Source: a virus
Taxonomy: Duplodnaviria > Heunggongvirae > Uroviricota > Caudoviricetes
DNA: 64,000 nt
Virus record (IMG/VR): IMGVR_UViG_3300043178_000179
Reading direction: 5' to 3' (one strand)
Shown here: piece after piece, positions 1 through 48,067 of the stretch
Numbering within the stretch: position 1 is the first letter of the stretch
Layout: each line of letters opens with the position of its first letter
The notes under the pieces: model-generated
Told to the model about the DNA's origin: nothing
The model's database searches: none
The model's input: only the letters and a program-made list of their open reading frames with translations
Position numbers and translations under genes: made by a program

Positions 1-140
1 CCCTGCCCGAAGCACGGCACCGCGACGATGGGCCAGGCGCCAACGCCCCCTTCCGCGCCGGCTTCCACGTCCTCGGACGGCACGCTGATCGCGCTCGGGC
101 TCGCTGCCGCCGCTGCCGCGGCGCCCTTCGCGATGAACTG

Positions 141-2696
141 GTGGAGGAACCGGTGAGGCTCCGGCGCCATCGGGTGCGCCTGCCCGAGCGCGCCGGGACC
201 GTCCCGCGCCCGCCGCCGTACTGGCCGGGCATCCCGGAAGTCCGCCCGTTCGAGGACGTCTACGACGGTGACGAGGTCCTGGACGACCTGCTGCTGGAGG
301 TGGACCTGCTGACTGCTCCGAAGAAGGGCTCGAAGCAGGGTGGCTTGTCCGAGCTGGTCAAGGCGAAGGTCGAGGCCGCGACGGCCAAGGCCAAGGCAAA
401 GACGGCGAAGCGAGAGGCCAAGGCTGCGCGAAGCGAGGCGGCCGAGCAGCGCCACGAGGCGCAGGCCGAGCGCGCGGAGACTCGGGAGGTCCGCGCCGAG
501 GGCCGGACGGCCCGCGCCGAGGACGGCGGGGAGTCCGTCGGAGCGGCCCGTTCCGGGATGTTGCCGGTGATGGACCCGGAGCACAACGTCCGGGAGACGG
601 CCAAGCAGCTCGCGCTGTTGGAGGACCACCTCTTCCACCCCGCGAAGCGGTGCGCGGACTGCATCCGCAAGCACCTGCTGACGGCCGAGGCGTTGGCCGA
701 GGAGGCCACGACGCTCGACGTGGACGGTGCGATGGGCGAGGCGACGACGGAGGGTCTGGTCGAGAAGATCCGCGGGTTGCAGCGCGCGTACCTCGCCGGG
801 ATCTCGAAGCGCGACCTCGCGCAGAAGGTCCGGGAGATCCGGAAGGACCTGGCCAAGCGGTCCTTCGGCGCGGTCTCGAAGCAGGCATCCCAGATGCCGG
901 AAGGGAGCCGCGCGGTCCGCGACCGGGTCGGTCCTGAGCCGGTGGAGGGTGGCGACCCGCCGCTCGGGGTTCCGCCTCCCATGGCCTTCTCCCAGGACTC
1001 GGTCGATGGCTTGGGCGGGTCGGCCGACGAGCGGCCGGACCTGGAGACGGCGGTCCAGTCGGCCCGGTCCGAGTGGCTCGGGCGGAACGGGGTGCTGGCG
1101 GTCCGCGCCATCGGTGGTGACACCATCCGGGTGGAGCGCGCGCCGGTCGACGCCCCCGAGCCGCCGGGGACGTACATGGGCTGGCCGGTCGAGACGACGA
1201 CGATCAGGTGCCGGCCCGGGCTGCACCGGGTGTTGCCGCTGGCGCGCTGGACGCTGGTGGGGCAGTACGGGATCGAGTCGGTGGCGCTGGAGAAGAACCC
1301 GTCCCACCGTCCGCTCACGCTCGATCCGGAGTATCGGCTGGTCGCGCTCGTGTCCGGTCGCGGGAAGATGCCGGGGCAGGCGAGGATCCCGGACTCGTAC
1401 ATGGGTTGGCCGATGGTGACCCGGCCGCTTCGGGCCCGCGGCTCCACGGCCCGCGGCTCCTCGGCGCTCATGGAGAGCGATGCACACCGCCGTGGGTTTC
1501 GTGGCGGCGAGGCCGTGATCTTCGGCGTGCCCCGTGCCGATGAGTCCGGGCTCTTCACCTGGCGCCGTGGGCACACGCTCCAGGTCGGCGACCGGTTCGA
1601 CGACGACCTGGTGGAATCGATCCCGCAGCAGGGCTGGGTGGCGGTCCGGGATCCGGCCCGCAACACGGCGCACTGGGTGCCCGAGGCCGCGGTCGTCCGG
1701 GTCCAGCCGAGCCCGATCTCGGATTGGCTGCGGGGCCGGACGCTGACCCGGTTCGACGAGAAGCAGCTCACGGGGGCGGTGGTGAGCCAGCGTCCGCTGA
1801 CCGAGGAGCAACTCGCGATGGCGGACCTCGTGCAGGGCGTGATGGCGCCTCATCTCGCCAACGCCTGCGACTGGGCCGGCATCGACCCGGCCCTGGTGGC
1901 GAACAAGGGGTGCCGGCAGGACGTGCCGCAGAAGCTGCTGGTGGCCGCGCTGGTGAACGCGGCGTACGAATCGAACTTCGACCCCGAGGCCGTCGGAGAC
2001 AAGGGCGCCTCGGTGGGGCTCTTCCAGCTCAACGTCCGGGGTGCCGGCCAGGGGATGTCGGTGGTGGATCGGAAGAACCCGATCCGCAACACGCTCCGGA
2101 TCCTGGAGGTGGCCTCGAAGAAGGCCCCGGCCTTCGCGACGGCGATGGTGAACGACGCCCAGGCCGCGGTCACGGCGCCGATGGTGGGCGCGGCTGAGAT
2201 CGGGACTCCTGTCGGAGAGTACGCGCGGCTCTGGACGGTCCACATCGAGGAGCCGAAGTACGCGGACAAGAAGGGTGCCCTGCGCGGCCGGACGGCCGAC
2301 CTGTTGGTGGCGGCCGGGACGCGCCCGACCGTGGCGACGGACCTGCCGGTGCTGCGTGCCGGCGTCCAAGGCCAAGGGCCGGCCGTCGCGCTGCTCCAGC
2401 AACGGCTGAACGCGCACGGCTACCCAGTGGACGTGGACGGGACCTTCGGACCTCGGACGCTCGCGGCCGTGATCGAGTTCCAGCTGGCCCGCGGGATCGT
2501 GCCCGACGGCGTGGTCGGTCCGAGCACCTGGTCGGCGCTGATGCGCGAGCGCGGCGCGGTTGCCCCGGCGCCCGCCCCGATGGCCCGCACGGCCCCGTCG
2601 GCGCCGAGCGCCGGTCCATCGGCCGGCGTGCTCGTGCTCGGTGGCCTCGCAGCGGCCGCGGCGCTCCTCGGGGTCGCGCTGAGCCGCCCCGGCTGA
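141..2696 (+). CDS. virion-associated murein hydrolase: coiled-coil N-terminus, lytic transglycosylase (SLT) domain, PG_binding_1 domain, C-terminal hydrophobic anchor
   Basis: GTG start. SLT motif 'AAYESNFDPEAVGDKGASVGLFQL'. PG-binding repeat 'LLQQRLNAHGYPVDVDGTFGPRTLAAVIEFQ'. K/A/E-rich coiled coil near the N-terminus. C-terminal 'VLVLGGLAAAAALLGVAL'. Confidence 0.6.
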   Translation: MEEPVRLRRHRVRLPERAGTVPRPPPYWPGIPEVRPFEDVYDGDEVLDDLLLEVDLLTAPKKGSKQGGLSELVKAKVEAATAKAKAKTAKREAKAARSEAAEQRHEAQAERAETREVRAEGRTARAEDGGESVGAARSGMLPVMDPEHNVRETAKQLALLEDHLFHPAKRCADCIRKHLLTAEALAEEATTLDVDGAMGEATTEGLVEKIRGLQRAYLAGISKRDLAQKVREIRKDLAKRSFGAVSKQASQMPEGSRAVRDRVGPEPVEGGDPPLGVPPPMAFSQDSVDGLGGSADERPDLETAVQSARSEWLGRNGVLAVRAIGGDTIRVERAPVDAPEPPGTYMGWPVETTTIRCRPGLHRVLPLARWTLVGQYGIESVALEKNPSHRPLTLDPEYRLVALVSGRGKMPGQARIPDSYMGWPMVTRPLRARGSTARGSSALMESDAHRRGFRGGEAVIFGVPRADESGLFTWRRGHTLQVGDRFDDDLVESIPQQGWVAVRDPARNTAHWVPEAAVVRVQPSPISDWLRGRTLTRFDEKQLTGAVVSQRPLTEEQLAMADLVQGVMAPHLANACDWAGIDPALVANKGCRQDVPQKLLVAALVNAAYESNFDPEAVGDKGASVGLFQLNVRGAGQGMSVVDRKNPIRNTLRILEVASKKAPAFATAMVNDAQAAVTAPMVGAAEIGTPVGEYARLWTVHIEEPKYADKKGALRGRTADLLVAAGTRPTVATDLPVLRAGVQGQGPAVALLQQRLNAHGYPVDVDGTFGPRTLAAVIEFQLARGIVPDGVVGPSTWSALMRERGAVAPAPAPMARTAPSAPSAGPSAGVLVLGGLAAAAALLGVALSRPG

Positions 2697-2757
2697 CCCA
2701 TGCGGGTGCTGGTGATCCAGTGCGGCGCGCGGAAGCGCTCTGGAACGCATCCCGTCC

Positions 2758-3528
2758 GTGCTCTCGGCCGAGCACGGGCTCTTGCCGGAGGCGGCCTTGT
2801 GTCCGGCCTACGACCGGGTACTGGTGCCGTCCGGCTACCGGGGCAGGACGAAGGACGGAAGCCCGGTGCGTCGGGTCGACGAGCTGGTCCCGCGGCTCCG
2901 GCAGCAGCGCGACGAGCACGAGCTTCCCCGCGCGCTCGACTTCGTCGGTGGGAAGCTCTACGCCGAGGCGCTCGTCGCGGCGGGGTACGAGGTCCGGTCG
3001 CTGTCGGCCGCCGGGATCGGGTACAAGCGCGCGGCATTGCGCGAGTACCTGGAAAGCGCGGCTCCGGGAAAGGGAGGGCGGCGCCGGGTGCTGGACGCCA
3101 GCGACGCTCACACTCCGGACGGGAACCTCCTGTACGAGACGAAGGCCGGCCCGGCCGCGGCCTTCTGGGAGTTTCTCTCCCCGCACCGTGGATGGAATGT
3201 CCTCGTTGTCCCATTGAGGCCCCGGCGCATCCCGCTGAGCCCGAGTCTGGCCCGGCGTGTGGCGCAGCGGTTGAGGCTTGTACCTCTTCCGACCGATCCT
3301 GACGGTCTTCGACGGATCAATGCCCTCTCGGAGTCCTCGGACCTGGAAGACCGTGCGCTCTTCTTGCGTGGTTTCGTCGCTGAGCTAGGCCTCTACGGCG
3401 CGGCAAGCCGGTTGGGGGCCCGTTTGGAGGGACTGTCGCCCAGCCTGATACAGCAGCGCTGGGGCCGTCTGGCCGACCTGAACTTTGCCCAGGATGCCAA
3501 GGACTTGGACGCCCAGGAAGAGGATTAG
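2758..3528 (+). CDS. hypothetical protein
   Basis: GTG start. Protein-like composition in frame 1. The upstream frame is closed by a TGA at 2713. Confidence 0.4.
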   Translation: MLSAEHGLLPEAALCPAYDRVLVPSGYRGRTKDGSPVRRVDELVPRLRQQRDEHELPRALDFVGGKLYAEALVAAGYEVRSLSAAGIGYKRAALREYLESAAPGKGGRRRVLDASDAHTPDGNLLYETKAGPAAAFWEFLSPHRGWNVLVVPLRPRRIPLSPSLARRVAQRLRLVPLPTDPDGLRRINALSESSDLEDRALFLRGFVAELGLYGAASRLGARLEGLSPSLIQQRWGRLADLNFAQDAKDLDAQEED

Positions 3529-3608
3529 CCTTGACGGCCAAGCGCATCCCGCGCTAAGGGGGCGTCCATGACCCACTCATTGGATGCCTTCGACTTGGGG
3601 ACCACCCG

Positions 3609-4142
3609 ATGAGCCGAGCGACGCCCAGCGGGCGCACCAAGACGCCGCGCGTGGACCGGGACCGTTGGCGCACGCCACCGGAGGTCGTCGCGGACCTCGC
3701 GCGTCGGTTCGACGTCACCTTCGGCCTCGATGCGGCGGCGACGACGGGGACCGAGGTATGCGCCCGGGGGATCAGCCCGGAGATGAACGCGCTGGCGATG
3801 CGGTGGGCGCCGCTGTGTCCGCCCGACGGGGCCGTGTGGCTGAACCCGCCCTACTCTCAGCGCGGCGGAGGGCTCTTGGCCTGGTCCGAGAAGGCCGCCG
3901 AGGCCGCGGCGGAACGGACCGTGGTGGTCTTGGCTCCGTCGACCCCGGACGCCCGGTGGTTCCGGCTGCTCTGGAAGTGGTCGTCGCGGGTGCTGTTCAG
4001 CGAAGGGCGGATCCAGTTTCTCCAGCCGGACGGCTCGCCGAGCAGGGGCAACCCCGGTGGGTCGAGCGTGTTCCTGCTGCACCGGAACAGCCCAGGCGCA
4101 CCGCGCGTCGAGTTCTGGCCGATTCCCCGGGTGCGCCGGTGA
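3609..4142 (+). CDS. phage N6-adenine DNA methyltransferase (Dam-like, phage_N6A_met family)
   Basis: 'DAAA' followed by the catalytic 'NPPYS' motif in a ~177 aa protein, typical of small phage Dam methylases. Confidence 0.75.
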   Translation: MSRATPSGRTKTPRVDRDRWRTPPEVVADLARRFDVTFGLDAAATTGTEVCARGISPEMNALAMRWAPLCPPDGAVWLNPPYSQRGGGLLAWSEKAAEAAAERTVVVLAPSTPDARWFRLLWKWSSRVLFSEGRIQFLQPDGSPSRGNPGGSSVFLLHRNSPGAPRVEFWPIPRVRR

Positions 4143-4432
4143 ACGTCTGCGTCCGGTGCGGGCACGCGCCGTGTACCGCCTGCTCGACGTGGTGCGACGT
4201 GGTGCTTCGAGACGGAAACCAGAAGGGCGAGGTCGAACTCTGCTGCGACGGGACGTGTCTCTACCCGGACGGGACGGGACTGGACGCCGATACCGACCTG
4301 GCCCGGACCGAGCGCGAGCACGCGGCGCGGCTCGGCCTCGACGTCCTCGGGCTGTATGCGACCCACGTCGCGGTGCCTCGGTGTCACGACGAGGCCGGAG
4401 GATGGGAGATCGACCCCAGGAGTCGGGCATGA
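4139..4432 (+). CDS. small Cys-rich (zinc-finger-like) protein
   Basis: GTG start overlapping the upstream stop (GTGA). 'CVRCGHAPCTACSTWC...CCDGTC'. Confidence 0.35.
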   Translation: MNVCVRCGHAPCTACSTWCDVVLRDGNQKGEVELCCDGTCLYPDGTGLDADTDLARTEREHAARLGLDVLGLYATHVAVPRCHDEAGGWEIDPRSRA

Positions 4433-4644
4433 ACCTCGACCTGTTGCGTGAGGTGCTGCGCGCGGCGCTCCGCCCCAGCGGGGAGGAGATCCGCGCGGTC
4501 GTGAAGGAGTGCATGCCACCGGACGCCTACCAGGAGAGGACGATGAACCTCCGGCCGAAGGTCGGGATCATCGGCGCCGGGGACGGCACCGTCCCCGGAC
4601 GGGCGCCGATCGAAACGTTCCTCGGCGGCTGGGCCGCCGCCTAG
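4429..4644 (+). CDS. small hypothetical protein
   Basis: ATGA overlap with the upstream stop. 71 aa. Confidence 0.3.
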   Translation: MNLDLLREVLRAALRPSGEEIRAVVKECMPPDAYQERTMNLRPKVGIIGAGDGTVPGRAPIETFLGGWAAA

Positions 4645-4735
4645 GGCCTGACGGGTCTCTACGGAGACCCCGCCCGCGGCTATGCGGGCGGGTACGAGGA
4701 GGCCCCATGATCGTGCGCGGGAGACCCCATGACGC

Positions 4736-5002
4736 TTGCCTCGCTCGACTACGTCTCCGACCCCGATCTCTGTGGGCTGCCAGTCGTCCTCGTCTGCTAC
4801 CTCTACGCCCTCGTCGAGCGCGGGGAGGCCACATGGCCGACCGTGTGAGCTTTGGCGCGGCGCGGTCGGTGGCGGACCACGCGACGAAGGGCGAGCCGTG
4901 ACCGCGCTCCCCATTGCCTCCGCCGTCGCCGCGCTGGACCTCCCCGCGACCCGGGCGGCTGCGGCCGTAGTCGAGATGCTGGCGAACCGCGGGGCGCCAT
5001 GA
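4736..5002 (+). CDS. small hypothetical protein; its 3' end carries the shared junction motif '...RAAAAVVEMLA'
   Basis: The C-terminal peptide and its DNA recur at the 3' end of ORF 26236..26553. Start uncertain. Confidence 0.25.
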   Translation: MPRSTTSPTPISVGCQSSSSATSTPSSSAGRPHGRPCELWRGAVGGGPRDEGRAVTALPIASAVAALDLPATRAAAAVVEMLANRGAP

Positions 5003-5634
5003 TCCGCGCCCTCTCGATCAGCGGCGGCAAGGACTCGGCCGCGGCGGCTCTCCACATGGAGGAGCTGGGCCTGGAGGTTCACGCCCGGATCTACATGGAC
5101 ACGGGATGGGAGCACCACGACACCTACGTTCACCTGGATCTACTGGAGCGCAGGCTGGGCCCGATCACGCGCCTGCGCGTCGATGTCCCGATCCTCCCCG
5201 GCTACGAGGCTGAGGTCGCGAAGCTGGAGGCCATGCTTGGGATCTCCCCCTCCGCCATGGTCCGGCTCTGTGTTTGGAAGGGATATTTCCCCGGCCAGGG
5301 TACGCGCTGGTGTACGCAGGTCCTCAAGCACGTCCCCGCCGCGCGCTGGTACGCGGCGCAGGCCGACGACGTGGAGAGCGTGGTCGGGGTCCGCCGCGCC
5401 GAGTCGCTGGCCCGATCCCGGCTTCCCGATCGCGAATCGATGGAGCGCGTCGAAGTGCCGCCGGTGGTCCGTCTCCCGGGTGGGAGCCGGCGGATCGAGC
5501 TGGGCCACGTCGAGCAGTGGAGGCCGCTCGCGGACTGGTCCGAGGAGGAGGTGGTGCGCATCCACCAGCGTCACGGGCTCCCGCTGAACCCGCTCTACAG
5601 GCGGGGTTCGCGGACGATCCGCGGGTCGCAGTGA
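4999..5634 (+). CDS. PAPS reductase-like PP-loop ATP pyrophosphatase
   Basis: PP-loop 'SISGGKDS' near the N-terminus. ATGA overlap with the upstream ORF. Confidence 0.7.
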   Translation: MIRALSISGGKDSAAAALHMEELGLEVHARIYMDTGWEHHDTYVHLDLLERRLGPITRLRVDVPILPGYEAEVAKLEAMLGISPSAMVRLCVWKGYFPGQGTRWCTQVLKHVPAARWYAAQADDVESVVGVRRAESLARSRLPDRESMERVEVPPVVRLPGGSRRIELGHVEQWRPLADWSEEEVVRIHQRHGLPLNPLYRRGSRTIRGSQ

Positions 5635-5960
5635 TCCGTCGCCTGGAGGAGATCGCCAGCGCGCGGGTCCAGGAGCGACGCACGGCCCGCGTCGAGGCCG
5701 GCGTGAAGCAGCGCAAGGACATGCCGCCGCCGGCCTGGTTCCAGGTCCGCGATCCAGTCGCCATCGCGGCGTGGCGAGCCACGCACCCGGACGCAGCCGA
5801 GGACGAGCAGAACCGCCACCTGTGCGCGCCCATCGACCAGGCCCTGGAGTGGGCGCGCACCTCGCGCGGCGGGCGCCAGGTCCAGATGTTCGGCGCACCG
5901 TCGCGGGATTGGGCCTGCTCACGATTCGGCTACTGCGAGACGCGGCCGGAGGAGTCGTGA
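5631..5960 (+). CDS. hypothetical protein
   Basis: GTG start overlapping the upstream TGA. Cys-containing 'CAPIDQALEW...FGYCE'. Confidence 0.4.
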   Translation: MIRRLEEIASARVQERRTARVEAGVKQRKDMPPPAWFQVRDPVAIAAWRATHPDAAEDEQNRHLCAPIDQALEWARTSRGGRQVQMFGAPSRDWACSRFGYCETRPEES

Positions 5961-6307
5961 CCGCCTGGACCGTCACCACCAAGGGGAACCTGCGGTGCCG
6001 GGCACACTTCCGCCGGGAGGGAGCCGCTGCTGGCATTCCCGGCGCGCTCCCCATTGCCTCGGAGTTGATCCGCGCTGCCGTAGTCGCGCTGGACCTCCCC
6101 GCGGTGCGTGCGGCTTTCCACCTGGTACTCCAGGGGTGGCCCGAGCTGGGCGAGTGGACCAAGCGCGGCACCTCCCCGCTGAGTGCGGCGTGGACCAAGG
6201 CGACGGCATACCGCGTCGTCGGTAACGCCGTGCCGCCTTCGCTGGCCGAGGCCGTCGGGCGGGCCGTGATCGAGGCCGATGCCACGTGGCGCAGGGTGGC
6301 GGGGTGA
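5957..6307 (+). pseudogene. remnant of a C5-cytosine DNA methyltransferase (C-terminal motifs IX-X only)
   Basis: 'LQGWPELGEW...YRVVGNAVPPSLAEAVGRAVIEA' is near-identical to the C-terminus of the full methylase at 26550..28334. Motifs I-VIII are absent. Confidence 0.5.
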
Positions 6308-7205
6308 CCCGCCCCCGCGGTCTCTACGTCCCCTTCGCCGGGGCGCTGGGCGAGACGCTGTGCCTGCTCGGGGGGCGGCGACTGTTGCCCCCGTGCGGGT
6401 ACATGGGCTCCAAGCGCGCATACGGGCCGGCGATCCTCGGCGCGCTCGGCCTGCACCCCGGTCAGGGCTGCGACCTCGCTCTGATCGTGGACGCCGGACC
6501 CTGGGGCTGGGCCTGGCAGCACCTCTTCCAGGCGGACACGGCGCGATCCGTCGCGGCCCAACTCCGCGCGTGGCGTGGCGAGGACCCGGTCGGGCTCTGG
6601 CGCCGGCTGGCCGCAGAGCCACCGCCCGGGGATCTGATCGACGGGATCGCGACTTGGCTGTGGCTCCAGGCGCGGTGCGCGAACGCTTGTCCGGTGTGGT
6701 GGGATGATACCGGCTGGCGGATGGGCGACAAGCCGCGGTCGGGTGGGGCGAAGGGTGCGATTCAGCACGGGCACCACGCGGACCCCGACCACCCGCACAT
6801 CCAGTGGGGACGGCGGCCGGCCGCACCCGAGCCGGCCGTTCGACATGCCAGCCGCGAGATCCGCCCCAAGGGCACGGGGCGCGGGACTGTACGCGGCATG
6901 ATCGACCCCGGCACCATCGCCGCGCGGATTGAGGCCATCGCCCACCAGTTTGCGGCGTACCTCTGCCTCCAGGCGGGGGCGGCGCTCAGCAAGCCCGTGG
7001 TCGTGCGCGACGGGAGATGGAAGACGGCGGGTTACGGTCACATCAGCGAATCCGCTCGCGAGCGTGGCTTCGTGGACCGCCTGCGCTCCGACATGATCGC
7101 GCTCTGCGTCGACCGCCTCGCGGAGCTCCGGGCTCCGGCCATCGTCGCCTGCCACGCCCGCGCCGAGGACTGCGTGCCGCAGGGCGACCTGGACGGCTGG
7201 GTCGC
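6127..7205 (+). repeat. direct repeat copy A (~1.08 kb) of the methyltransferase module
   Basis: Near-identical to 28155..29199. Both start at 'ctccaggggtggcccgagctgggcgagtgg'. Confidence 0.8.
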
Positions 7206-7494
7206 GATTCTCGATCCGCCCTACCGCGGCGCGACGAGCTACGCGGCGGACTGCCCGCGCGAGACGGTGCTGGCGATGGCGCTGGACCTGCGAGCCCGCG
7301 GCGCGCGGGTCGCGGTCTGCGAGGCGGAGCCGCTGGCTCTCCCCGGCTGGCATCACCTCGACCTGACGGGCGTGCGCAGCGCGGGCGGGCCCGGATCGTG
7401 GTCCGCACGGCGCGCGAAGGGCGAGTGGCTGACGCTCAGCGACCCGCCGGCGGCGAGGCCGGTGGTCCAGCAAGCGCTCTGGCGGTCCGCATGA
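6303..7494 (+). CDS. DNA methyltransferase, N6A/N4C type
   Basis: 'YVPFAGALGE' (motif I-like) and 'ILDPPYRGATSY' (motif IV, DPPY). GTG start overlapping the upstream stop. Confidence 0.6.
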
Positions 7495-11042: not shown

Positions 11043-12647
11043 ATGGCTCGCGCCCGCACGCGCCGCTGGCTCGCAGCGCACGACGCCGAGCTGCGCTCCG
11101 TGCGGACTGCCGCCGAGCTCACCGACCTGATCCGGGTCTACGACGCCGAGGTCACCGGCCGCGCCTGGGAGGCGCGCGAGGCGCGGGAGGCGGGTCGCCG
11201 GCGCCACGTCGCCGCGCGGCGGACGGAGCGGGTGCAGGCGCTCCGCGCGGCCGCGGCCGCCGCGGACCCGGGCCCGGTCTCGACGCCGGAGGCGGGCCGA
11301 CGCTGGGCGAGGCTCGGGGTGCTGCCGCGGCCGGTGTACCACGCGACCCGGTTCGGTCCGCAGGTTCTGGCCACGGGACTGCGGAGCCGGTTCCAGCTCG
11401 CGGTGGGGGCGAAGGAGACGGCCCGTCCCCGTCCCGTGGGCCTCGGCGGCGGACCCGACGAGTACGTCTCGGTGACGCCGAGCCGTGTGCTGGCGTTGCG
11501 CCTGGCCGCGGCCTTGCAGGCGATCAACGAGGCGTTCAAGGATCCGGAAGGCGTGAGCGCCTGGTTCCGGGAGCACTGGCTGCCGTGGGTCTATCGGAGC
11601 CGGGTGTGGAGGGAGAAGCACTACTCCGGGGACCGGCCCGGTCCCGAGTTCGTCCGCAGGGTGCTGAACGACGCCTCGCAGGTTGTGTTCGGGAAGCCCT
11701 GGGCTCCTCCACAGGTGCATGTCCCCTGGATCATGGGAGGCCAGTACCCGGTCCCGGCCTCCTCGATCAGCGTGGTGACGGCCTACGTGCAGGCGGACCA
11801 GTTCGTGAGCAGTTCCTGGAAGGCCACCGACCGGACCTGGGGGCTGGTGGTGGACGCTCCGGCCATGCTCCGGCCGGACTGTCCCCGGGTCCGTGGTGGT
11901 CCCCGGACGAACATCGTGGATGCCGTCCGGCCTGCCGAGTACGCGCCGCTGCTCCCCGCGGCGGTGGCGACCGCGACGGAGAACCCTTTCGAGGGGAACG
12001 AGATCCGCGCCTGCCCCGAGGACGTGACCGTGGTAAGTTTCCAGCCGGTACTCAACTGGCGGAGGATCCTCATGCCCCGATCCGGAAGCGCGTCTCGTCA
12101 TTCGCCCGGCCATTCGCCCGGCTACTGCGAGGTCCCCTGGCTGGCGTCGGGCGGTCGCAACGTGACCGCGAAGGTCCCCGCGGCCCTCGCGGAACCCGGT
12201 GTGGATCCCTTCCAGGAGCAGCGGCGTCGGTGCGTGCTCGCGGTCTACAACCGGTTGGTGGCCTCGGGCGAACCGGAGGGTCGGCAGACCACTTCCCGCG
12301 CCTTCGCGATCTGCACGAAGCAGCTCCAGCGGTACGGCTACATCGTCCCAGGGACGGCCCGTCCGACGCAGAAGGGGATGGCCCGCTCGCTGGAGAAGCT
12401 GGCGGGGCCGCAGGCGGCCGAGCGCCGCGCGGCCTACGAGCAGGTGCTCCGGACGGCCCGGCAGGGTCGGCCGTCGCTCAAGGAGCGGCAGCAGGCGCGG
12501 CGGAAGCTGGACGCCCTACTCGCGCAGGCGCAGAAGGAGTCGGCGAAGGTCATCCCGCTGCCGACCGGGATCGACCGGCTGCTGCGCGAGGCGAAGCGGG
12601 CCGCGAAGCGCCGGACCTCGCGCCGCGGGGCCGCGGCCCGCTGGTGA
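11043..12647 (+). CDS. hypothetical protein (534 aa)
   Basis: ATG start, protein-like composition. Confidence 0.5.
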   Translation: MARARTRRWLAAHDAELRSVRTAAELTDLIRVYDAEVTGRAWEAREAREAGRRRHVAARRTERVQALRAAAAAADPGPVSTPEAGRRWARLGVLPRPVYHATRFGPQVLATGLRSRFQLAVGAKETARPRPVGLGGGPDEYVSVTPSRVLALRLAAALQAINEAFKDPEGVSAWFREHWLPWVYRSRVWREKHYSGDRPGPEFVRRVLNDASQVVFGKPWAPPQVHVPWIMGGQYPVPASSISVVTAYVQADQFVSSSWKATDRTWGLVVDAPAMLRPDCPRVRGGPRTNIVDAVRPAEYAPLLPAAVATATENPFEGNEIRACPEDVTVVSFQPVLNWRRILMPRSGSASRHSPGHSPGYCEVPWLASGGRNVTAKVPAALAEPGVDPFQEQRRRCVLAVYNRLVASGEPEGRQTTSRAFAICTKQLQRYGYIVPGTARPTQKGMARSLEKLAGPQAAERRAAYEQVLRTARQGRPSLKERQQARRKLDALLAQAQKESAKVIPLPTGIDRLLREAKRAAKRRTSRRGAAARW

Positions 12648-14892: not shown

Positions 14893-15921
14893 ATGACAAT
14901 CGACGAGTTGCTTCGACGCTCACGCCCCGTCTCGGACTGGTCCGGGGTGACGATCGCCCGCTGGCGGCTTCCGGACTTCGAGCCGATCGCGGTGGCCTTC
15001 TCGGGTGGGAAGGACAGCCTCGCCTGCGTTCTCCATCTCCTGGAGCTGGGCGTGCCGAAGGAGCGGATCGAGCTGTGGCACCACCTGATCGATCCGCCTG
15101 GCCAGCAGTTCATGGACTGGCCGGTGACGCCGGCGTATTGCAAGGCGGTCGCCGACGCCCTGGACCTCCCGATCTACTTCTCCTGGAAGGAGGGAGGGTT
15201 TCTCCGGGAGTTGCTGCGTGAGAACGAGGCGACCGCGCCGGTCGGCTTCGAGACTCCGAGCGGCCGCGTGATCCGCGTCGGTGGAAAGGGCCCTCCAGGG
15301 ACCCGTCGTCGGTTCCCGCAGGTCTCGGCCGATCTCAGCGTGCGGTGGTGCAGCGCGTACCTCAAGATCGACGTCGCCGCGCGGGTGATCACGAACGATC
15401 CGCGCCTGGACGCCGCGACGATGCTGCTCGTGACGGGAGAGCGCGCGGAGGAGTCGCCGGGCCGGGCACGGTATGCCGAGGCGGAGCAGCACAAGACGAC
15501 GACACGCCGGCGTCTTGTGGTCCAGTGGCGCCCGGTGCTGCGCTGGCCGGAGTCGGAGGTCTGGGAGATCATCGAGCGCTGGCGGATCAACCCGCACCCC
15601 GCCTACCGGCTGGGCTGGGGGCGCCTGAGCTGCATGAGCTGCATCTTCGGCGATCCGCGCCAGTGGCGCGCGGTCCAGCAGATCGCGCCCCGGGCTTTCG
15701 CACGGATCGCCGCCTATGAGCAGCAGTTCGGGACCACGATCAGCCGCGAGGGCAACGTCGTGGACCGTGCCCGCTGGGCCGGCGCCGTGGCGCTGCCGCC
15801 AAGCAGCGCGCCCATCGTCGCGAGCGCCATGAGCGAGGAGTTCACCGAGCCCGTGGTGTTGCCCTCCGGCGCCTGGCTGCTTCCCGCCGGCGCGTTCAAG
15901 AGGAGCGGGGGCCCGACTTGA
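14893..15921 (+). CDS. PAPS reductase-like PP-loop ATP pyrophosphatase (second paralog)
   Basis: PP-loop 'AFSGGKDS', 'SVRWCSAYLK', C-terminal 'CMSCIFG'. N-terminus 'MTIDELLRR' resembles the DLDALL motif family. Confidence 0.7.
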   Translation: MTIDELLRRSRPVSDWSGVTIARWRLPDFEPIAVAFSGGKDSLACVLHLLELGVPKERIELWHHLIDPPGQQFMDWPVTPAYCKAVADALDLPIYFSWKEGGFLRELLRENEATAPVGFETPSGRVIRVGGKGPPGTRRRFPQVSADLSVRWCSAYLKIDVAARVITNDPRLDAATMLLVTGERAEESPGRARYAEAEQHKTTTRRRLVVQWRPVLRWPESEVWEIIERWRINPHPAYRLGWGRLSCMSCIFGDPRQWRAVQQIAPRAFARIAAYEQQFGTTISREGNVVDRARWAGAVALPPSSAPIVASAMSEEFTEPVVLPSGAWLLPAGAFKRSGGPT

Positions 15922-16413: not shown

Positions 16414-16914
16414 ATGCGGGGGATGGACCTGGACACCCTGCTCGCACGGGCCCGCCGCGGGGCCCTGGAGGACCTGCTGGCCAGGGCCGCGCCGGTCTGG
16501 CCGGAGCCGTGGCACAGGATCCCCGGTTATGCCCCCGACGGCTACCGGATTCGGCTGAGCGGCCAGGAGCTGTTGGCCTTGCAGTGGCTGCTGGTCGAGG
16601 CCACCGCCCTTCGGAACAGCGCCCTGGTGGAGCTGCGAAAGCTCACCCGTGGCAGGTTCCCTTCGGACCCTCTCGGGCAGGTCGCGGCGCTGCGTCAGCA
16701 CGGGCTCGTGGGTTTCCGCAGGATCTCCGGGAGCGGGGACGGGGACGTGGTGCTGGCGGCTCCGATCGCCCGTGACGTGGAAGGCGCGATTCGGCCCGCG
16801 CTCGCCGCTCCGAGCAAGGGCTACGGGCGACCGACCGCGGCGCAGTTCGAGCTGTTGTCGCAGGCCCTCGACCCCAGCCAGATCGCCAAGCGGCGCTACC
16901 CGAGACCGCGCTGA
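16414..16914 (+). CDS. DLDALL-motif family protein 1
   Basis: N-terminus 'MRGMDLDTLLARARRGALEDLLARAAP'. Confidence 0.5.
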   Translation: MRGMDLDTLLARARRGALEDLLARAAPVWPEPWHRIPGYAPDGYRIRLSGQELLALQWLLVEATALRNSALVELRKLTRGRFPSDPLGQVAALRQHGLVGFRRISGSGDGDVVLAAPIARDVEGAIRPALAAPSKGYGRPTAAQFELLSQALDPSQIAKRRYPRPR

Positions 16915-17558
16915 TGGACCTCGACGCGCTGCTGAGGAGGGCCAAGCGGAGCCGGAGCCCGAAGAGGAAGCCGGCCCTGGACCTGGACCGGTTGCTCGCG
17001 GCCGCCCAAACCCCCGAGGTCGCCCTCGTCGTCCCACCCGCGCCGACAGCCCGGCAGCAGGCCCAGGAGGCGCGGGCGCAGGCGGCCCGGGCCCAGGCCG
17101 CCGTGGCGGCCGTCCAGGGCGCCGTGAGCACGAGGCCGCTGATCGAGTTTCCCGGGCTCGTGCTCGTGTCGCCGCAGGCCCCCGGCGCGCACGGTCGGAT
17201 CTGGTCGACCGACGATCCGGCCATGGCCGCCGCCGCGGCCGTTCGGCTCCCGGGTGACCGCGGCTTCCGCGGCGAGATCATCCTCCTCCGGGGCCGGTTC
17301 GCGATCGTGGCGGACATCCTGGGCACCGGGCTCATCGTCGCCGACACCCAGTGGCCACTGGAGCGCGCGCAGCCGGTTCAGCCGATCGGCGTCGGACGGC
17401 CGAGGCACAACTACGCCTACCTGGTGCTGTCCAGGCTGCGGGACAGTTCGATCACGGAGGTCCGGCGGCAGATGGAGCTCCGCATCTTCCTGGAGAAGAC
17501 CTTGAACGAGGGAAAGCTGCCCCCGATCGCCTACCGGGAGGCCACCCCCTGGCGATAG
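16914..17558 (+). CDS. DLDALL-motif family protein 2
   Basis: 'MDLDALLRRAKRS...ALDLDRLLAAAQ'. ATG overlaps the upstream TGA (TGATG). Confidence 0.55.
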   Translation: MDLDALLRRAKRSRSPKRKPALDLDRLLAAAQTPEVALVVPPAPTARQQAQEARAQAARAQAAVAAVQGAVSTRPLIEFPGLVLVSPQAPGAHGRIWSTDDPAMAAAAAVRLPGDRGFRGEIILLRGRFAIVADILGTGLIVADTQWPLERAQPVQPIGVGRPRHNYAYLVLSRLRDSSITEVRRQMELRIFLEKTLNEGKLPPIAYREATPWR

Positions 17559-17606: not shown

Positions 17607-18251
17607 ATGTCCGGGTTCCCCCTGTTCGCGGTGCGCGGGAGCCGAGCGCTCGATCTGGACGCGCTGCTCGCGCGGGCCGGAGCCGAGGCGCGACCGAGCC
17701 CGATCGACGCGCTGTTGGCCAAGGCCAAGGTGCTGACGCCGGAAGGGCTCAAGCAGGGGAGAACGGAAGCGGATCTCGCGGGCCTGCGCGCGGTCTTTGG
17801 CAAGGCCGGCCGCCGCTACCTGGACGCGCTCCTGGCGGGACGGAAGACGATCCAGATCCAGGGGCGGAGGTACGAGTTGACGGAGGTATTCCGGGGCAGC
17901 CTTGCTGGGAAGGTCATGCTGGCGGACGGCTACATGGCCTGGCCCGTCGCCCAGGCGCCGGCCGGTGTGAAGGTGGATACCCGGTGGCCCACCTTCGACG
18001 AGATCGGCAGGGACTGGGCGGGCCCCGACTCGGCCGTCGTCCGTTCCATCCTCTTCTCGCCGGAAGGTGACGAGGCCATCCTCGACCCGCCGGATCCTGT
18101 TCGGGTCAACGCGATCCGCCTCGCCGCCATGGCCGAGGCCGTGGACGGGACAGCGCTGCGGACCAACGCAGGCGCTCCACCGAAGGACCTGGCGGCGACG
18201 GTCCGTGTCGATGGCCGGCGCGGTACGGCCTGGCTCGCGGTGCTGCGATGA
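17607..18251 (+). CDS. DLDALL-motif family protein 3
   Basis: 'ALDLDALLARA...IDALLAKAKV...YLDALLAGRK'. An alternative start at 17562 is possible. Confidence 0.5.
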   Translation: MSGFPLFAVRGSRALDLDALLARAGAEARPSPIDALLAKAKVLTPEGLKQGRTEADLAGLRAVFGKAGRRYLDALLAGRKTIQIQGRRYELTEVFRGSLAGKVMLADGYMAWPVAQAPAGVKVDTRWPTFDEIGRDWAGPDSAVVRSILFSPEGDEAILDPPDPVRVNAIRLAAMAEAVDGTALRTNAGAPPKDLAATVRVDGRRGTAWLAVLR

Positions 18252-19025
18252 AGATCGACGACCTGCTGCGGAAGGCCGGTGCGGCCGCGAAGCCGAAGGT
18301 CTCGCTGGACGCGCTGTTGGCCGCCGCCGCGCAGGAAGCGCCCCCGGCGACCCCGGTCTCGTCTCCCCGCGCGGCCCCGCGCCGCCCGTCGCCGCCGCCG
18401 CCCCCGCGCCGACAGCCGGCCGCCCGCGGCCCGGCCATGCCCGGCGCGCGGGCGTTCACCGACGCCGACATCGCGGCCGCCGAGGCGGAACCGCCGAAGG
18501 GATGGCGGGTGCGCAGGTTGGATCCGAAGTCCCTCGTCGGCGGCGCCGTGACCTGGATCCGTCCGATGGACAGGCCGGTGGGTGGCCTGGAGTGGGACGC
18601 GCTGGTCTCGGTGAGCTGGGCCCTGGGCTCCTGGCACGGGGCGTCCGGCAAGGACGGGTGGTGGACGGTCCGGTCGCTGCCTTTCGACGGTGTCGAGCGC
18701 TCCTTCCACGGGGACGACGCGAAGGCCGCGATCCGCCAGGCGTTCGCCTGGATGCGCTCGGCGCCGAAGCGTGGGAGCCGCGCGATGGAGAAGCCGGAGA
18801 TCGCCATCGTCCGTGTCGAGCCGATCCACCAGGGCTTCAAGCCTCACGCGATGGCGAAGGCGGCCGCCCGGGGACGGACCTACGACCCGCGCGAAATCGT
18901 CGCGGTCCGCGTCACGATCGCGGCCGCGGACGCTACCACCGCCCAGAGCGAGTGGGCGAGGCAGGCGGCCCGCGAGGCTGCGTGGAAGGTCACCCGCGGA
19001 CCACGACCTGGGAAGTTTCCTGATG
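18248..19025 (+). CDS. DLDALL-motif family protein 4 (3' end uncertain)
   Basis: 'MKIDDLLRKAGAAAKPKVSLDALLAAAAQ'. ATGA-coupled start. The frame stays open into R/G/P-rich sequence, so the true stop was not identified. Confidence 0.4.
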
Positions 19026-20798
19026 CCGAGCATCGACGCGCTGCTCGCGAAGGCCGCGCGCCAGGCGCCCCGGCAGGCTCCGGGCATGGACCTGGACGCG
19101 CTGCTGGCCCGGGCGGCTCGACAGGCCGCCCCCGCCGCCGGCGTGGCTCGACAGGCCGCCCCTGCCGGCGTGGCCCGGGTCCAGGCCCCTCCGGCGGCCG
19201 CCAAGCCGAAGGGGAAGCTCCGGCGGCTGCACGACCCGAAGCTCGCCCCCGCCAAGGGCGTCGAGGTCACCCAGGTCCGCACCCAGGCCGGCGGCAAGCC
19301 GTTCGAGGTGGACGCGCTCGTCCTCTCCTCGACTCCCGACCTCGTGGTCCACCGTCCGATCAGGGTCTACGACGAGGTCTTCTCGTCCGACGGCTTCGTC
19401 GTGACCCATCGCTGGACCGGCGCCGCGGTCGCCTACGGTCCGCCGGACGCGATCCCCCAGGATGCGATCCCGCTCATTCCTGCCGTCGCCACCTGGCTCC
19501 GGAAGGGCAGGATCGACCTGGCCGAGCGGGACTACGAGAAGCTCAGCGCCGCCAGCCGTGCCTCCGGGTTGGACAAGGGGGAGGTCGAACGGCTCCTCCA
19601 GGATCCCCGGAAGCTGCCGCGGCTGGTCGCCGCGCGCCAGGCCGCGCGGGCGCAGCGGCGGAAGATCGTGCTCGGCCAGGGGATCGGCGATGCCCAGATC
19701 GCGGCGGAGATCCGCGCCGCGATCCGGAGGGACGACGGCCTGGCGCTCTACGGTAACGAGCTGGCCGTGCGCATCGGACCCTTCCCGGCCTTCCACTACC
19801 GGTTCTGTTGGACGGGGAAGAAGGTCGTCCTGGACCCGTGGACTCCGCAGGGCTGGCGTTCCGGTCCCGAGCCCCGGCTCGGGATCGACCAGCCGGTGAT
19901 CCGGAAGCCGTCGAAGGTCGTGCTCGACGCGCTCGACGAGTTCATGTCCGCGGCGACGGCCGCGCGGCTCCGTGGCCGGAAGAAGCTGGCGTGGCCCGTG
20001 CCCGACGCACCGGTCGGGCGGATCCGTCGCGCGAAGCCACTGGACGCCGAGCAGCAGCTCCGGCGGCGCGCGAGCTACCTGCACGCGATGGACCCCGAGG
20101 CGAAGAAGCCGGTCAAGCCGGTCGTCGTCCTGGTCGAGGCCGACAATCGGCTCTGGGTCTGGCACGGCGGCGTGGTGGGGCCGGGTCCGGACAAGATGCT
20201 CTACGAGGTCGTGCCGAAGGCGGCCTGGAAGGGTCCGACCTTCGGCTACAAGGAGAGCGGCCGCGCGCGCTCGCTCGGACTCGTGTTCTGCGACGACGCG
20301 GCCGACGAAGCCGGGCACGAGATCACCGTGCGTGGCCAGTCCTACGTCCACACCGGGCGGACCATGCTCGTCACCGCGCCCATGATCTCGGACGACATGT
20401 TCGCCGAGGGGCTCTTGCTGCTCAAGGACAAGCGACTCGTGATGAGCCTCGGTCCCGTCCAGCGACCGCGGGCCTTTTCCGGCCGCCTCGGTGATGTGGA
20501 TCCGGCGCGGGTGATGGCGGTCGACCTCCGGGACCCGAGGACCGTGGCGATCGCCAAGGCCAAGGTCAAGGGAGCGACGTTCGCGGAGCTGGAAGCGATG
20601 GCCCGGCCGAGGCCCATCGTGGTGCAGCTCGGCGACGTGGCCGAGTACCTGCACCTCCGCACGGCCGAGGAGGAGATCAAGAAGCGCGCGCCGGGCTTCG
20701 ACTGGCAGGTCCGTCAGGCGCTCGCGGCCCTGATGCGCAAGCCGCACGAAGTCGAGGAGCAGGACAGGGACGAGGACGAGGAGGAAGGCGAGGAATGA
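19023..20798 (+). CDS. DLDALL-motif family protein 5 (591 aa, acidic C-terminal tail)
   Basis: 'MPSIDALLAKAARQAPRQAPGMDLDALLARAARQ'. C-terminal 'EVEEQDRDEDEEEGEE'. Confidence 0.55.
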   Translation: MPSIDALLAKAARQAPRQAPGMDLDALLARAARQAAPAAGVARQAAPAGVARVQAPPAAAKPKGKLRRLHDPKLAPAKGVEVTQVRTQAGGKPFEVDALVLSSTPDLVVHRPIRVYDEVFSSDGFVVTHRWTGAAVAYGPPDAIPQDAIPLIPAVATWLRKGRIDLAERDYEKLSAASRASGLDKGEVERLLQDPRKLPRLVAARQAARAQRRKIVLGQGIGDAQIAAEIRAAIRRDDGLALYGNELAVRIGPFPAFHYRFCWTGKKVVLDPWTPQGWRSGPEPRLGIDQPVIRKPSKVVLDALDEFMSAATAARLRGRKKLAWPVPDAPVGRIRRAKPLDAEQQLRRRASYLHAMDPEAKKPVKPVVVLVEADNRLWVWHGGVVGPGPDKMLYEVVPKAAWKGPTFGYKESGRARSLGLVFCDDAADEAGHEITVRGQSYVHTGRTMLVTAPMISDDMFAEGLLLLKDKRLVMSLGPVQRPRAFSGRLGDVDPARVMAVDLRDPRTVAIAKAKVKGATFAELEAMARPRPIVVQLGDVAEYLHLRTAEEEIKKRAPGFDWQVRQALAALMRKPHEVEEQDRDEDEEEGEE

Positions 20799-23950: not shown

Positions 23951-24072
23951 TGATCGTCCACCCGGTACTGCTCGCGGGAGCGCTCGCCGGGGCGGTCGCG
24001 TGGCTGGTGCACGAACTACGCGAACGCACCGCGGCCCTGTCCGCCCGTGGCGAGCACTGGAGGGCCTCGTGA
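23950..24072 (+). CDS. small membrane peptide (40 aa)
   Basis: 'MIVHPVLLAGALAGAVAWLV'. Coupled to both flanking genes. Confidence 0.3.
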   Translation: MIVHPVLLAGALAGAVAWLVHELRERTAALSARGEHWRAS

Positions 24073-25076
24073 TCGACAGCCGCATCGAATGGTGCGACGA
24101 CACGGTGAACCCCTGGTGGGGGTGCGAGAAGGTATCTCCGGCCTGTCGCTTCTGCTACGCGGAGGCGCTGGACGCCCGCAACCTCCACGGCGACGGTTTC
24201 CACTGGGGCTCCGGGGCCCCGCGGAGGTTCCGGGTCGAGAAGGCGCTGCACGAGTTGGAGCGGTCGATCCGGCGCGCGACCCGAGAGGATCGCGTGCGAC
24301 GGGTCTTCGTCGCGTCGATGGCGGACGTGTTCGAGGACCGGGCGGACGTAGCCGATGCGCGGCTGGCGTTCCTGACCGGCGCACGCGGTCTGGCGGAGAG
24401 CTGGCGCGCGACCCGCGACCTGGCGGCGGACGCCTTGGGGTATGGACCGCAGGATCCCGATGGGCCGCCGCCGATCCGGCTCCTGCTGCTCACGAAGCGT
24501 CCGCATGTCATGGCGGCCTGGGCAGCGCGGCACGGCTGGGAGCCCTGGTGGTGGGCGGGGACGACGGTCGAGGACCAGGAGCGGGCGGCCGAGCGCATCC
24601 CGCACCTCTTCGAGGTTCCGGCTCGGGTGCGGTTTCTGAGCTGCGAGCCGCTGCTGGAGCGGGTCGTGCTCGGCGATGCCCTGGGTGGGTGTCGCTGCGC
24701 CGTCGAGATGATGGAGGGCGCCGGCCAGCACGCGGTCGGGTGTCCCGCCACGAAGCCTCGCGTCGACTGGGTCATCGCGGGCGGCGAGAGCGGCGCAAGC
24801 GCACGGCCCGCGCACCCGGACTGGTTCCGGTCGCTGCGCGAGGAGTGCCGCGCGGCCGATGTCCCGTTCTTCTTCAAGCAGTGGGGCGCGTGGTCGCCGC
24901 AGCCGCTGCCCTGGGACGTGGACGAAGTGGCCGCGGCCGGACCGTCGGGCTTCGCGCCCTGGAAGGACAAGTCGTCGGGCGAGAACATGGCGGTCCTCCG
25001 CATGGGTCGGCGGGCCTCGGGTCGTTTCCTCGATGGACAGCGCTGGGACCAGGTTCCAGAAGGAGTGGCCGCGTGA
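24069..25076 (+). CDS. phage Gp37/Gp68-family protein (DUF5131-like)
   Basis: 'WCDDTVNPWWGCEKVSPACRFCYAE' and 'SCEPLLE...WVIAGGESG...PFFFKQWG'. Confidence 0.6.
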   Translation: MIDSRIEWCDDTVNPWWGCEKVSPACRFCYAEALDARNLHGDGFHWGSGAPRRFRVEKALHELERSIRRATREDRVRRVFVASMADVFEDRADVADARLAFLTGARGLAESWRATRDLAADALGYGPQDPDGPPPIRLLLLTKRPHVMAAWAARHGWEPWWWAGTTVEDQERAAERIPHLFEVPARVRFLSCEPLLERVVLGDALGGCRCAVEMMEGAGQHAVGCPATKPRVDWVIAGGESGASARPAHPDWFRSLREECRAADVPFFFKQWGAWSPQPLPWDVDEVAAAGPSGFAPWKDKSSGENMAVLRMGRRASGRFLDGQRWDQVPEGVAA

Positions 25077-26239: not shown

Positions 26240-26553
26240 CCTCGCGCGACCTCGCCCTCCTCCTCCCGGCCCTGGACCGCGCCACCGGCCGGCCGTGGAC
26301 GACGTGCGTGTGCGGCGACGGGCGGCTGCTCGCGTGGCCCGCGGGCGATGGCGGTCGCATCGGTGGCCAGCTTGCGCTCATCGAGTGCTGGACGCAGGAC
26401 GCCTACCGCTCAATGCCGCACACGATCCGGCGCGTGGTTCTCCGGTCGCAGTTCCGCGCGCTGGATGGCGACCGGCGGGACATTGAGGCCGGGCCCGGCT
26501 GGCCGATCCGGGCGGCTGCGGCCGTAGTCGAGATGCTGGCGGCGCGGACGTGA
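26236..26553 (+). CDS. small hypothetical protein ending in the shared '...RAAAAVVEMLA' junction motif
   Basis: GTG start. The 3' end is DNA-identical to the 3' end of ORF 4736..5002. Confidence 0.4.
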   Translation: MTSRDLALLLPALDRATGRPWTTCVCGDGRLLAWPAGDGGRIGGQLALIECWTQDAYRSMPHTIRRVVLRSQFRALDGDRRDIEAGPGWPIRAAAAVVEMLAART

Positions 26554-39497: not shown

Positions 39498-39526
39498 GGG
39501 CCTGGCAGGAGGATCGATGACTCTCA

Positions 39527-46813: not shown

Positions 46814-46874
46814 GGCGACGTAGCTGGTGACGGTGAGCGTGTTCCGGACGCGGGTTCGACTCCCGCCATCTCCA
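46814..46874 (+). pseudogene. truncated or degenerate tRNA (Gly-TCC-like anticodon hairpin, no variable region, 2 acceptor mismatches)
   Basis: D-arm plus hairpin gcgt-gTTCCgg-acgc, abutting the T-arm gcggg-ttcgact-cccgc. Confidence 0.3.
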
Positions 46875-46878
46875 CTTT

Positions 46879-48065: not shown

Positions 48066-48067
48066 CT

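Follow-up and report, generated by a model that had tools for sequence, protein, structure and literature searches.

PP-loop genes labelled PAPS reductase in a large phage: a stand-alone set with a possible role in nucleic acid modification

Introduction

DndC, SspD and BrxP are PP-loop enzymes that make DNA phosphorothioate (PMC12914056). In Vibrio phages, a fusion of a phosphoadenosine phosphosulfate (PAPS) reductase domain with a Dam domain is an anti-Dnd gene, and a swap between this fusion and methylase genes switched escape from the host Dnd system (10.1101/2021.05.05.442762). Here we analyse three open reading frames (ORFs) on a stretch of 64,000 nucleotides of Caudoviricetes DNA (IMG/VR record IMGVR_UViG_3300043178_000179; the whole stretch is called the window). 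A preliminary description, made from the letters of the sequence without database searches, had presented them as three PAPS-reductase-like PP-loop paralogs that are DndC-like or otherwise nucleic acid-modifying rather than involved in sulfate assimilation. We refer to them as gene A (4999-5634), gene B (14893-15921) and gene C (48068-49336).

Other described proteins also bear on these genes. The 'PAPS reductase' proteins of phage 186 (Orf84), P2-like phages and Burkholderia phages are found in phrog_424, and Orf84 is labelled 'not essential' in the phage 186 record. TtuA, NcsA and TtcA are [4Fe-4S] PP-loop tRNA thiolases. Phage polyvalent proteins have been put forward as packaged or early-delivered (injected) counter-defence effectors (Iyer et al. 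2017, PMC5512222); no PAPS-reductase or PP-loop domain is mentioned among their domains in that paper.

Like DndC, SspD and BrxP, the genes of the window have the PP-loop core (with SGGKDS in A and B), a Cys…CxxC pattern and an association with DNA-modification genes. They differ in standing alone, without a DUF4007 fusion and without DndD/E, SspB/C or BrxC/Z/L partners that we could find; in gene C, moreover, the loop is GxGRDS and Pfam gives no match. We propose that they represent a phage-borne stand-alone set of PP-loop enzymes that may modify nucleic acid, probably DNA, for counter-defence, a proposal that we regard as evenly balanced between right and wrong.

Results

All three ORFs proved real and to belong to the PAPS-reductase/PP-loop superfamily, with the loops that had been read from the sequence (SGGKDS in A and B, GLGRDS in C). 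Gene A (plus strand, 211 amino acids) matched PF01507 (E=6.4e-16, 59.3 bits) and phrog_424 (E=5.8e-46), as did gene B (plus strand, 342 amino acids, motif FSGGKDS; PF01507 E=3.7e-10, 40.5 bits; phrog_424 E=8e-32). For gene C (minus strand, 422 amino acids), phrog_424 was the sole family match (E=1.4e-12); it matched nothing in Pfam or NCBIfam and stayed below the PF01507 gathering threshold (22.5 bits, whole-protein score). The ties of C to the superfamily are thus phrog_424, an hhalign alignment with the B family, and its fold.

The NCBIfam models for CysH and for APS and PAPS reductases gave 19-35 bits with A and B against cut-offs of 154-254: PRK02090 gave 34.7 and 26.8 bits (cut-off 154), and TIGR00434, TIGR02055 and TIGR02057 gave 19-27 bits (cut-offs 165-254). 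C matched none of these four models. An ECGLH motif was not visible in the translations of A, B or C. The outcome named beforehand as refuting the preliminary description, namely that all three are plain CysH proteins with a C-terminal ECGLH, is not what we found, and, judged by their sequences, A, B and C are not sulfate-assimilation genes.

Clear membership in a known modification family did not emerge either. The DndC equivalog TIGR03183 (cut-off 290.4 bits) scored 25.0 bits with A, 29.0 bits with B and gave no match with C. With the PADLOC models, which carry no curated cut-offs, the best match of A was SspD (1.5e-16, 58.9 bits, profile positions 4-124 of 277), B matched BrxP (1e-13, 48.4 bits, positions 216-329 of 779) and then DndC (1e-8), and C gave a marginal SspD/BrxP match (E ~1e-3). 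No copy matched a QueC or tRNA-thiolase family model of Pfam or NCBIfam, and membership in QueC or TtuA is not supported. The expectation of DndC-like enzymes rather than sulfate-assimilation enzymes thus holds in part: the proteins are not CysH, their best matches in the defence library are phosphorothioation enzymes and they lie amid orphan DNA methyltransferases, but their scores stay far below the DndC cut-off. The set appears to sit in the ATP-using, Cys…CxxC branch of the superfamily together with DndC, SspD, BrxP and Orf84; no copy qualifies as DndC itself, and the matches to the SspD and BrxP models are partial.

Three distinct families are represented. Those of A and B are known but uncharacterised phage families, and C is an undescribed variant. 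Common to them are a PP-loop of canonical or near-canonical form, one single Cys and a CxxC that is followed by a helical hairpin. This cysteine pattern is typical of [4Fe-4S] enzymes and suggests that the set may bind an iron–sulfur (Fe–S) cluster.

B is an intact member of a very widespread and highly conserved phage family, with more than 4,344 homologous proteins, the best of them at 53-62% identity. Invariant in this family are the PP-loop, C83, C153, C247xxC250, many Arg and Trp residues and a C-terminal W.LPAGAF...GPT tail. A 'PAPS reductase' of Pseudoalteromonas phage KB12-38 is 48% identical to B. The homologues stand alone in early or accessory regions of phages, near MT-A70, C5 and DUF4942 methyltransferase genes. 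AlphaFold2 (AF2) gave high-confidence models for both B and C, with PP-loop enzymes as the nearest structures. For B (pLDDT 88.6), the nearest solved folds were CysH, APS reductase and the PAPS domains of FAD synthase, which align with the core only (TM 0.37-0.41). The sole solved chain with sequence similarity to the CxxC and helical region of B (Y.LG…C..C..G…W…P..F.R.A..E) is chain C of PDB 21fy; this similarity is local, over ~50 residues, and weak, with E values of ~1e-3 to 2e-2. The chain's name, 'PptA', is taken from the PDB entry, since a literature search found no paper describing it.

Gene C is an intact, divergent member of an undescribed GxGRDS family, a variant without a Pfam match. 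Its motifs are GLGRDS, C167, GIAADE and KSGC298xxC301. The residues of the loop (G24, G26, R27, D28 and S29) are invariant in 29 members of the family, in which C167, C298 and C301 are also conserved. The AF2 model of C has a PP-loop fold, and hhalign placed the PP-loop, the single Cys and the CxxC plus helix of the C and B families in register. A BFVD structure search with C returned one weak match only, a Vibrio phage 'PAPS reductase' (TM 0.37), and tblastn of C against phage records returned none. When the C family was used in an exhaustive hidden Markov model search, 127 cluster representatives matched at E<1e-30, and with E<1e-10 their number rose to 1,158.

A fourth paralog, C2, lies outside the window. 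It is found on a contig from another sample (L016, 2049-3176) that is identical to positions 1-4838 of the window and reaches 6.4 kb further upstream, which places C2 ~3.2-4.3 kb upstream of window base 1. C2 (375 amino acids) is of the C type (GLGRDS, HECT, GIAADE, KSGCWTC), is 33% identical to C and matches phrog_424 (6.6e-22). The original count of three paralogs therefore needs amending: the three ORFs exist, but one is broken, the two intact ones belong to different families and a fourth lies beyond the window.

The broken copy is gene A, which corresponds to the N-terminal portion of a PAPS-reductase-like gene of the Orf84 type. Gene A keeps the PP-loop (SISGGKDS) and the TRWCT cysteine and is 31% identical to phage 186 Orf84. 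Its close full-length homologues have 330-355 amino acids and 56-78% identity and contain RVGCWPCIFA; the conserved cysteines of the family lie in TRWC, GCWPC and C...C-E. The protein encoded by A ends NPLYRRG-SRTIRGSQ-stop, after which the frame of the family returns two bases out of phase (…FADDPRVAVIRRLEEIA), and no frame holds a Cys codon across the junction at 5595-5660. The C-terminal remainder, here A-down (5631-5960, plus strand, 109 amino acids; W..TSRGGRQ...CSRFGYCE), starts at a GTG that overlaps the stop codon of A (GTGA). In blastp it matched the C-termini of phi644-2 gp56 (E=1e-5) and 186 Orf84 (1.5e-4), with which it shares the W..TSRGG.Q…C…CE tail. An intact orthologue, P0153 (353 amino acids, full length, with RVGCWPC), is 78% identical to A and, in its C-terminal part, 77% identical to A-down; it adjoins a D12 methylase gene.

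Two other metagenomes yielded contigs with the same split into 211 and 109 amino acids; their identity to the window is 100% and 99.95%, and they rule out a one-off assembly error. Gene A is thus a truncated gene, in which an out-of-frame internal deletion has removed the invariant GCWPC and the missing C-terminus forms the next ORF. Proteins of the Orf84 type are single polypeptides of ~330 amino acids that carry SGGKDS, R(F/W)C, RVGC.PC and, at the C-terminus, a C…CE tail. Gene A has lost the RVGC.PC to the deletion and is broken in two at 5631-5634, which makes it a disrupted member of this type. As two family-invariant cysteines are lost, the product of A is probably inactive or crippled.

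In other phages, domains of these families are joined in one polypeptide. Three proteins of metagenomic phages (P0283, P0272 and P0282, the last from an IMG/VR viral contig, L021) contain a C-type domain followed by a full-length B-type domain that is 40-55% identical to B; two others (P0301 and P0326) combine a C-type with an Orf84-like domain. Given the fusions of the first kind, B-type and C-type enzymes probably act together. In phage KB12-38, a distance of 2.6 kb separates the B-like gene from a C-like one (GMGTNS; 30% identical over the N-terminal 117 residues), with methylases, a ligase-like gene and a DndB-like gene nearby, and one further contig of the C family holds a C-like gene, a C5 methylase, a Mom-like gene and a second PAPS-reductase gene. 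MT-A70, C5, DUF4942, Mom and Dam genes are neighbours of B and C homologues.

Among the best 145 proteins of the C family, 19 have 800-3,300 amino acids. These giants also hold ART-PolyVal, ddrB-ParB and Methyltransf_23 domains and resemble the phage polyvalent proteins described before (PMC5512222); the difference is that in the phage studied here the domains are separate genes. Four window proteins match other parts of the C-type giants, namely the C-terminal domain of 34874-36190 and the products of 61199-62335, 11043-12647 and 62335-63999. The first (minus strand) comprises a NUDIX domain (2e-4), an internal LDLDRLL and a C-terminal domain of ~260 amino acids (FVDSGA...VAPD...LQxG...HLLGxG...DS). 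This domain matches P0301, P0284, P0316, P0303 and P0309, is fused with C-type domains in polyvalent proteins and lies near C-type genes in four of 11 IMG/VR loci. Its DSGA and HLLGxG motifs resemble transglycosylase-type motifs. A profile search of PDB sequences, Pfam and PHROG gave no informative match for the domain, and its identification as a TGT/DpdA-like transglycosylase is thus unsupported.

A short N-terminal peptide, (M/L)DLDxLLxRAxR, heads at least five unrelated proteins of the window, namely C and the products of four plus-strand genes downstream of B (16414-16914, 16914-17558, 17607-18251 and 19023-20798, found by regular expression). The motif [ILVM][DES][ILV][DE]x[LI][LI] occurs seven times in the window proteome against 0.23 times expected (300 shuffles). 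The sites are at 16423, 16914, 16977, 17649 and 19086 on the plus strand and at ~35720 and 49336 on the minus strand. The gene at 16914 has a second copy, and in 34874-36190 the tag marks the internal domain junction. Degenerate versions head B (MTIDELL; MTIDELLRRSRP) and C2 (LSIEHLLRRARP), and one more copy lies upstream of C2 (L016:1619). The DLDALL-type N-terminus previously ascribed to two of the three copies is therefore exact in C (MDLDALL) and degenerate in B, and it is not specific to these enzymes. In other metagenomes, the tag is found at the N-termini of some C-family proteins and of two B-family proteins. A DNA repeat was considered and ruled out: in a DNA alignment of the sites, only ~21 coding nucleotides were conserved, and we therefore treat the tag as a peptide motif. 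As its putative function we favour a signal for packaging or ejection, or else a peptide for recruitment.

The PP-loop genes lie among methyltransferase genes, in line with the co-occurrence proposed before for several DNA methyltransferases. A Dam-type N6-adenine DNA methyltransferase gene (3609-4142, plus strand; PF05869, 2.7e-24) precedes A by ~0.85 kb. Together with the D12 methylase beside P0153, it recalls the Vibrio PAPS-Dam fusion. An intact C5 DNA methylase is encoded at 26550-28334 (plus strand; PF00145, 8e-26) and an intact methyltransferase-like protein with a DPPY motif at 6286-7494 (plus strand, 402 amino acids). A copy of the latter gene (28313-29503, plus strand, 396 amino acids) diverges exactly before the DPPY, and an orphan 3' remnant of a C5 methylase is found at 6126-6307 (plus strand).

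These genes are arranged in a direct repeat of 1.1 kb (6126-7218 and 28153-29203; blastn 90% over 1,098 nucleotides) that contains the 3' end of the C5 methylase and most of the DPPY gene; the copies are 89% identical in amino acids over 311 residues, and each has one intact and one broken gene. Upstream, a segment of 38 nucleotides, 97% identical, is present before A (4947-4984) and before the C5 methylase (26504-26541), where it forms the end of a leader ORF. A overlaps its leader (4736-5002, plus strand) at the start codon by four nucleotides, and the C5 methylase overlaps its own by the same length. Given the shared leader end and the repeat, A holds the slot that the C5 DNA methylase holds in a sister cassette, and the repeated leader end looks like a junction used in cassette exchange. 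A degenerate third copy of the leader end, fused to the methylase remnant, is found at ~6040-6115.

Partner genes were sought by scanning ~50 window proteins against Pfam, PHROG and PADLOC and by inspecting flanks of ~6.4 kb upstream and ~2 kb downstream of the window. None of DndB/D/E, SspB/C, BrxC/Z/L, FolE/QueD/QueE or DpdA was present among the scanned window proteins, so the partners named for a Dnd or deazapurine pathway did not turn up. Pfam and PHROG scans of the neighbours of A and B were mostly empty and gave no partner genes.

The window holds 43 tRNA-type calls (one with undetermined anticodon) and a transfer-messenger RNA (tmRNA). C is placed as first described, inside the tRNA array and on the opposite strand; its neighbours are tRNA-Ala(ggc), with its end at 48066, and tRNA-Ala(tgc), with its start at 49598. 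A scan for promoters and terminators around C found such sites no more often than in shuffled sequence. We found no tRNA genes near the homologues in nine loci (five with C homologues, four with B homologues), which rules out tRNA linkage as a conserved feature of C. As separate observations, ARAGORN reported a tRNA with anticodon TTA at 34276-34351, which would read UAA stop codons, and the phage-borne tmRNA at 46506-46875 (tag ANNNNHFEARAAA) alongside a near-complete tRNA set.

A ubiquitin-like (Ubl) protein and an E1 enzyme had been reported to co-occur with the PP-loop genes. A Ubl-like ORF (plus strand from 29886, 100 amino acids, ending ...PFGGLA) indeed overlaps the gene of a minimal E1 of the ThiF/MoeB type (30185-30763, plus strand, 192 amino acids; PF00899, 3.9e-22) that follows it, and the best PDB matches of the E1 are ThiF (3.7e-10), MoeB and Uba4; a tie of this pair to the PP-loop genes, however, is unsupported. 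The gaps near the pair offered no candidate ORF for a JAB peptidase with a coding signature.

The window is best read as part of a large novel phage with a high-GC host. Its G+C content is 71%, and the genes chosen from the ORFs carry a strong coding bias at third codon positions. Megablast of 12.5 kb of the window against 50,697 phage records gave zero matches; proteins identical to those of the window were found on a 95-kb metagenome contig. Other contents are lysins, HNH genes, PcfJ-like genes, several methyltransferases, a DUF5131 protein (phage Gp37/Gp68 type; 24069-25076, E=5.5e-69) and an Fe/Mn superoxide dismutase (56596-57186). Two PcfJ-like paralogs (52888-54000 and 55457-56599) have a 62-nucleotide repeat in common (53230-53291 and 55817-55878, 77% identity). 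At 39517-39927, the Acb2/Tad1 hairpin domain, a family of anti-CBASS/anti-Thoeris sponges, matched weakly (E=0.0024), with 18.5 bits where the cut-off is 27.

Discussion

In this study we found that three phage ORFs of the kind labelled PAPS reductase belong to families other than CysH, with domains of these families joined in fusion proteins of other phages and with relatives that lie near DNA-modification genes. We propose, with belief and doubt in equal parts, that this stand-alone PP-loop set modifies nucleic acid, probably DNA, for counter-defence. TtuA and APS reductase serve as general models of the chemistry. By analogy, the enzyme would use ATP to adenylate an oxygen on nucleic acid, the likeliest substrate being phage or host DNA. 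Sulfur would then replace the oxygen, either through an Fe–S site or from a persulfide supplied by host cysteine desulfurases of the IscS type. The resulting modification might shield the phage from Dnd, Ssp, BREX type 4 or restriction systems, or interfere with them. The scheme also draws on the biochemistry of DndC, SspD and BrxP (PMC12914056, PMC12839542).

Several findings weigh against this proposal. Matches to the DndC, SspD and BrxP models score low and are partial. The ATPases DndD, SspC and BrxC, as well as DndE, the SspB nickase and a cysteine desulfurase, were not found in the scanned window proteins and sampled flanks. The very strong conservation of B in phages whose hosts are unrelated is in keeping with a universal substrate, which may be DNA, tRNA or a nucleotide alike, and Fe–S binding is read from cysteine patterns alone. 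Finally, a second canonical PAPS-type gene occurs within 10 kb in only two of the 11 IMG/VR C-type loci, and a C-type gene in none of the sampled B-family loci. B and C are thus not tightly linked, and the case for their coupling relies mainly on the fusions.

The common tag and the concatenation of the same domains in giants elsewhere suggest that the tagged neighbours and these domains form one guild of early or injected counter-defence proteins. A more specific version of our proposal, which we put forward tentatively and consider unlikely as it stands, is that B and C form an undescribed two-component phage system. It would carry out an ATP-activated substitution on DNA, for example with sulfur, without DndD/E, SspB/C or BrxC, and its proteins, tagged with DLDxLLxRA, would be deployed as 'unlinked polyvalent' proteins for co-packaging, ejection or recruitment to a hub.

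Alternatively, the enzymes, and C especially, might be thiolases of the TtuA/NcsA/TtcA type that act on the ~43 tRNAs of the phage and receive sulfur through the Ubl/E1 pair, along the lines of the TtuA-TtuB-TtuC or Urm1-Uba4-Ncs6 relays. C lies within the tRNA array, has the three-Cys pattern of these thiolases near its PP-loop and has TtuA and NcsA among its fold matches. The best solved relatives of the E1 (ThiF, MoeB and Uba4) are sulfur-carrier activators, and the Ubl-like ORF in the same genome has a near-terminal GG. However, no tRNA-thiolase model of NCBIfam or Pfam was matched, and the homologous loci, without tRNA genes in all nine cases, show that the position in the array is not conserved. 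The fusion partners, moreover, are DNA-conflict domains (ParB, ART and methyltransferase). The distance of the Ubl/E1 pair is 18 kb to C and 14 kb to B; its Ubl ends in GGLA, and a JAB peptidase was not found in the nearby gaps. We therefore judge tRNA thiolation to be distinctly unlikely.

Another explanation supposes that the proteins are non-catalytic or dominant-negative mimics of DndC, SspD or BrxP that poison or hijack host phosphorothioation complexes. It would account for the required partner proteins not having been found in the window scans, and for best matches to three host defence enzymes, a different one for each paralog; the anti-Dnd precedent might also work in this way. Against it, the D-S of the PP-loop, all cysteines and many Arg and Trp residues show no variation among thousands of B homologues or within the C family. 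Such invariance of catalytic-type residues points to catalysis on a conserved substrate rather than to the binding of fast-evolving host proteins, and hijacking of host partners would still be a catalytic role. Mimicry thus seems highly improbable.

We give still less credence to base exchange, in which QueC-like PP-loop enzymes would act on a deazapurine base that is then inserted into DNA, perhaps by the C-terminal domain of 34874-36190. QueC carries out an ATP-dependent amidation and nitrile formation. QueC and the PP-loop enzyme Cap9 are among the weaker structural and sequence matches, and the FVDSGA…HLLGxG domain co-occurs with C-type domains and is fused to them; nevertheless, FolE, QueD, QueE and DpdA were not found among the scanned proteins, and the profile of the domain finds no TGT/DpdA structure in the PDB. 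Sulfate assimilation by true CysH-type PAPS/APS reductases acting as auxiliary metabolic genes is effectively refuted, the chance of it being close to negligible: PF01507 covers A and B, PHROG and source labels read 'phosphoadenosine phosphosulfate reductase' and the solved folds closest to B are those of CysH and APS reductase, yet the family cut-offs are far from reached and the catalytic motif is missing, the large extra domains (a beta-insert in B, and helical C-terminal domains) are absent from CysH, and the context is one of DNA methylases and conflict domains, not of sulfur metabolism.

'PAPS reductase' is among the commonest and least understood of phage gene labels and is usually taken to mean auxiliary sulfur metabolism. 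That reading fails here, where no copy is CysH. Handles on function are offered by the uncharacterised C-type family, whose relatives number in the thousands and for which Pfam has no model, by the Rosetta-stone fusions of C-type with B-type and Orf84-like domains, by the embedding in polyvalent proteins, and by a cassette slot that holds a PAPS-reductase-like gene in one copy and a C5 methylase in the other. The B-C fusions, the polyvalent-protein embedding and the common tag are most worth following, and the tag could prove to be a targeting signal shared by an entire set of accessory proteins of the phage. For evasion of phosphorothioate-based immunity there is, to our knowledge, a single genetic precedent. 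If the enzymes do modify DNA on their own, they would offer phages a new way of modifying DNA and of evading this immunity.

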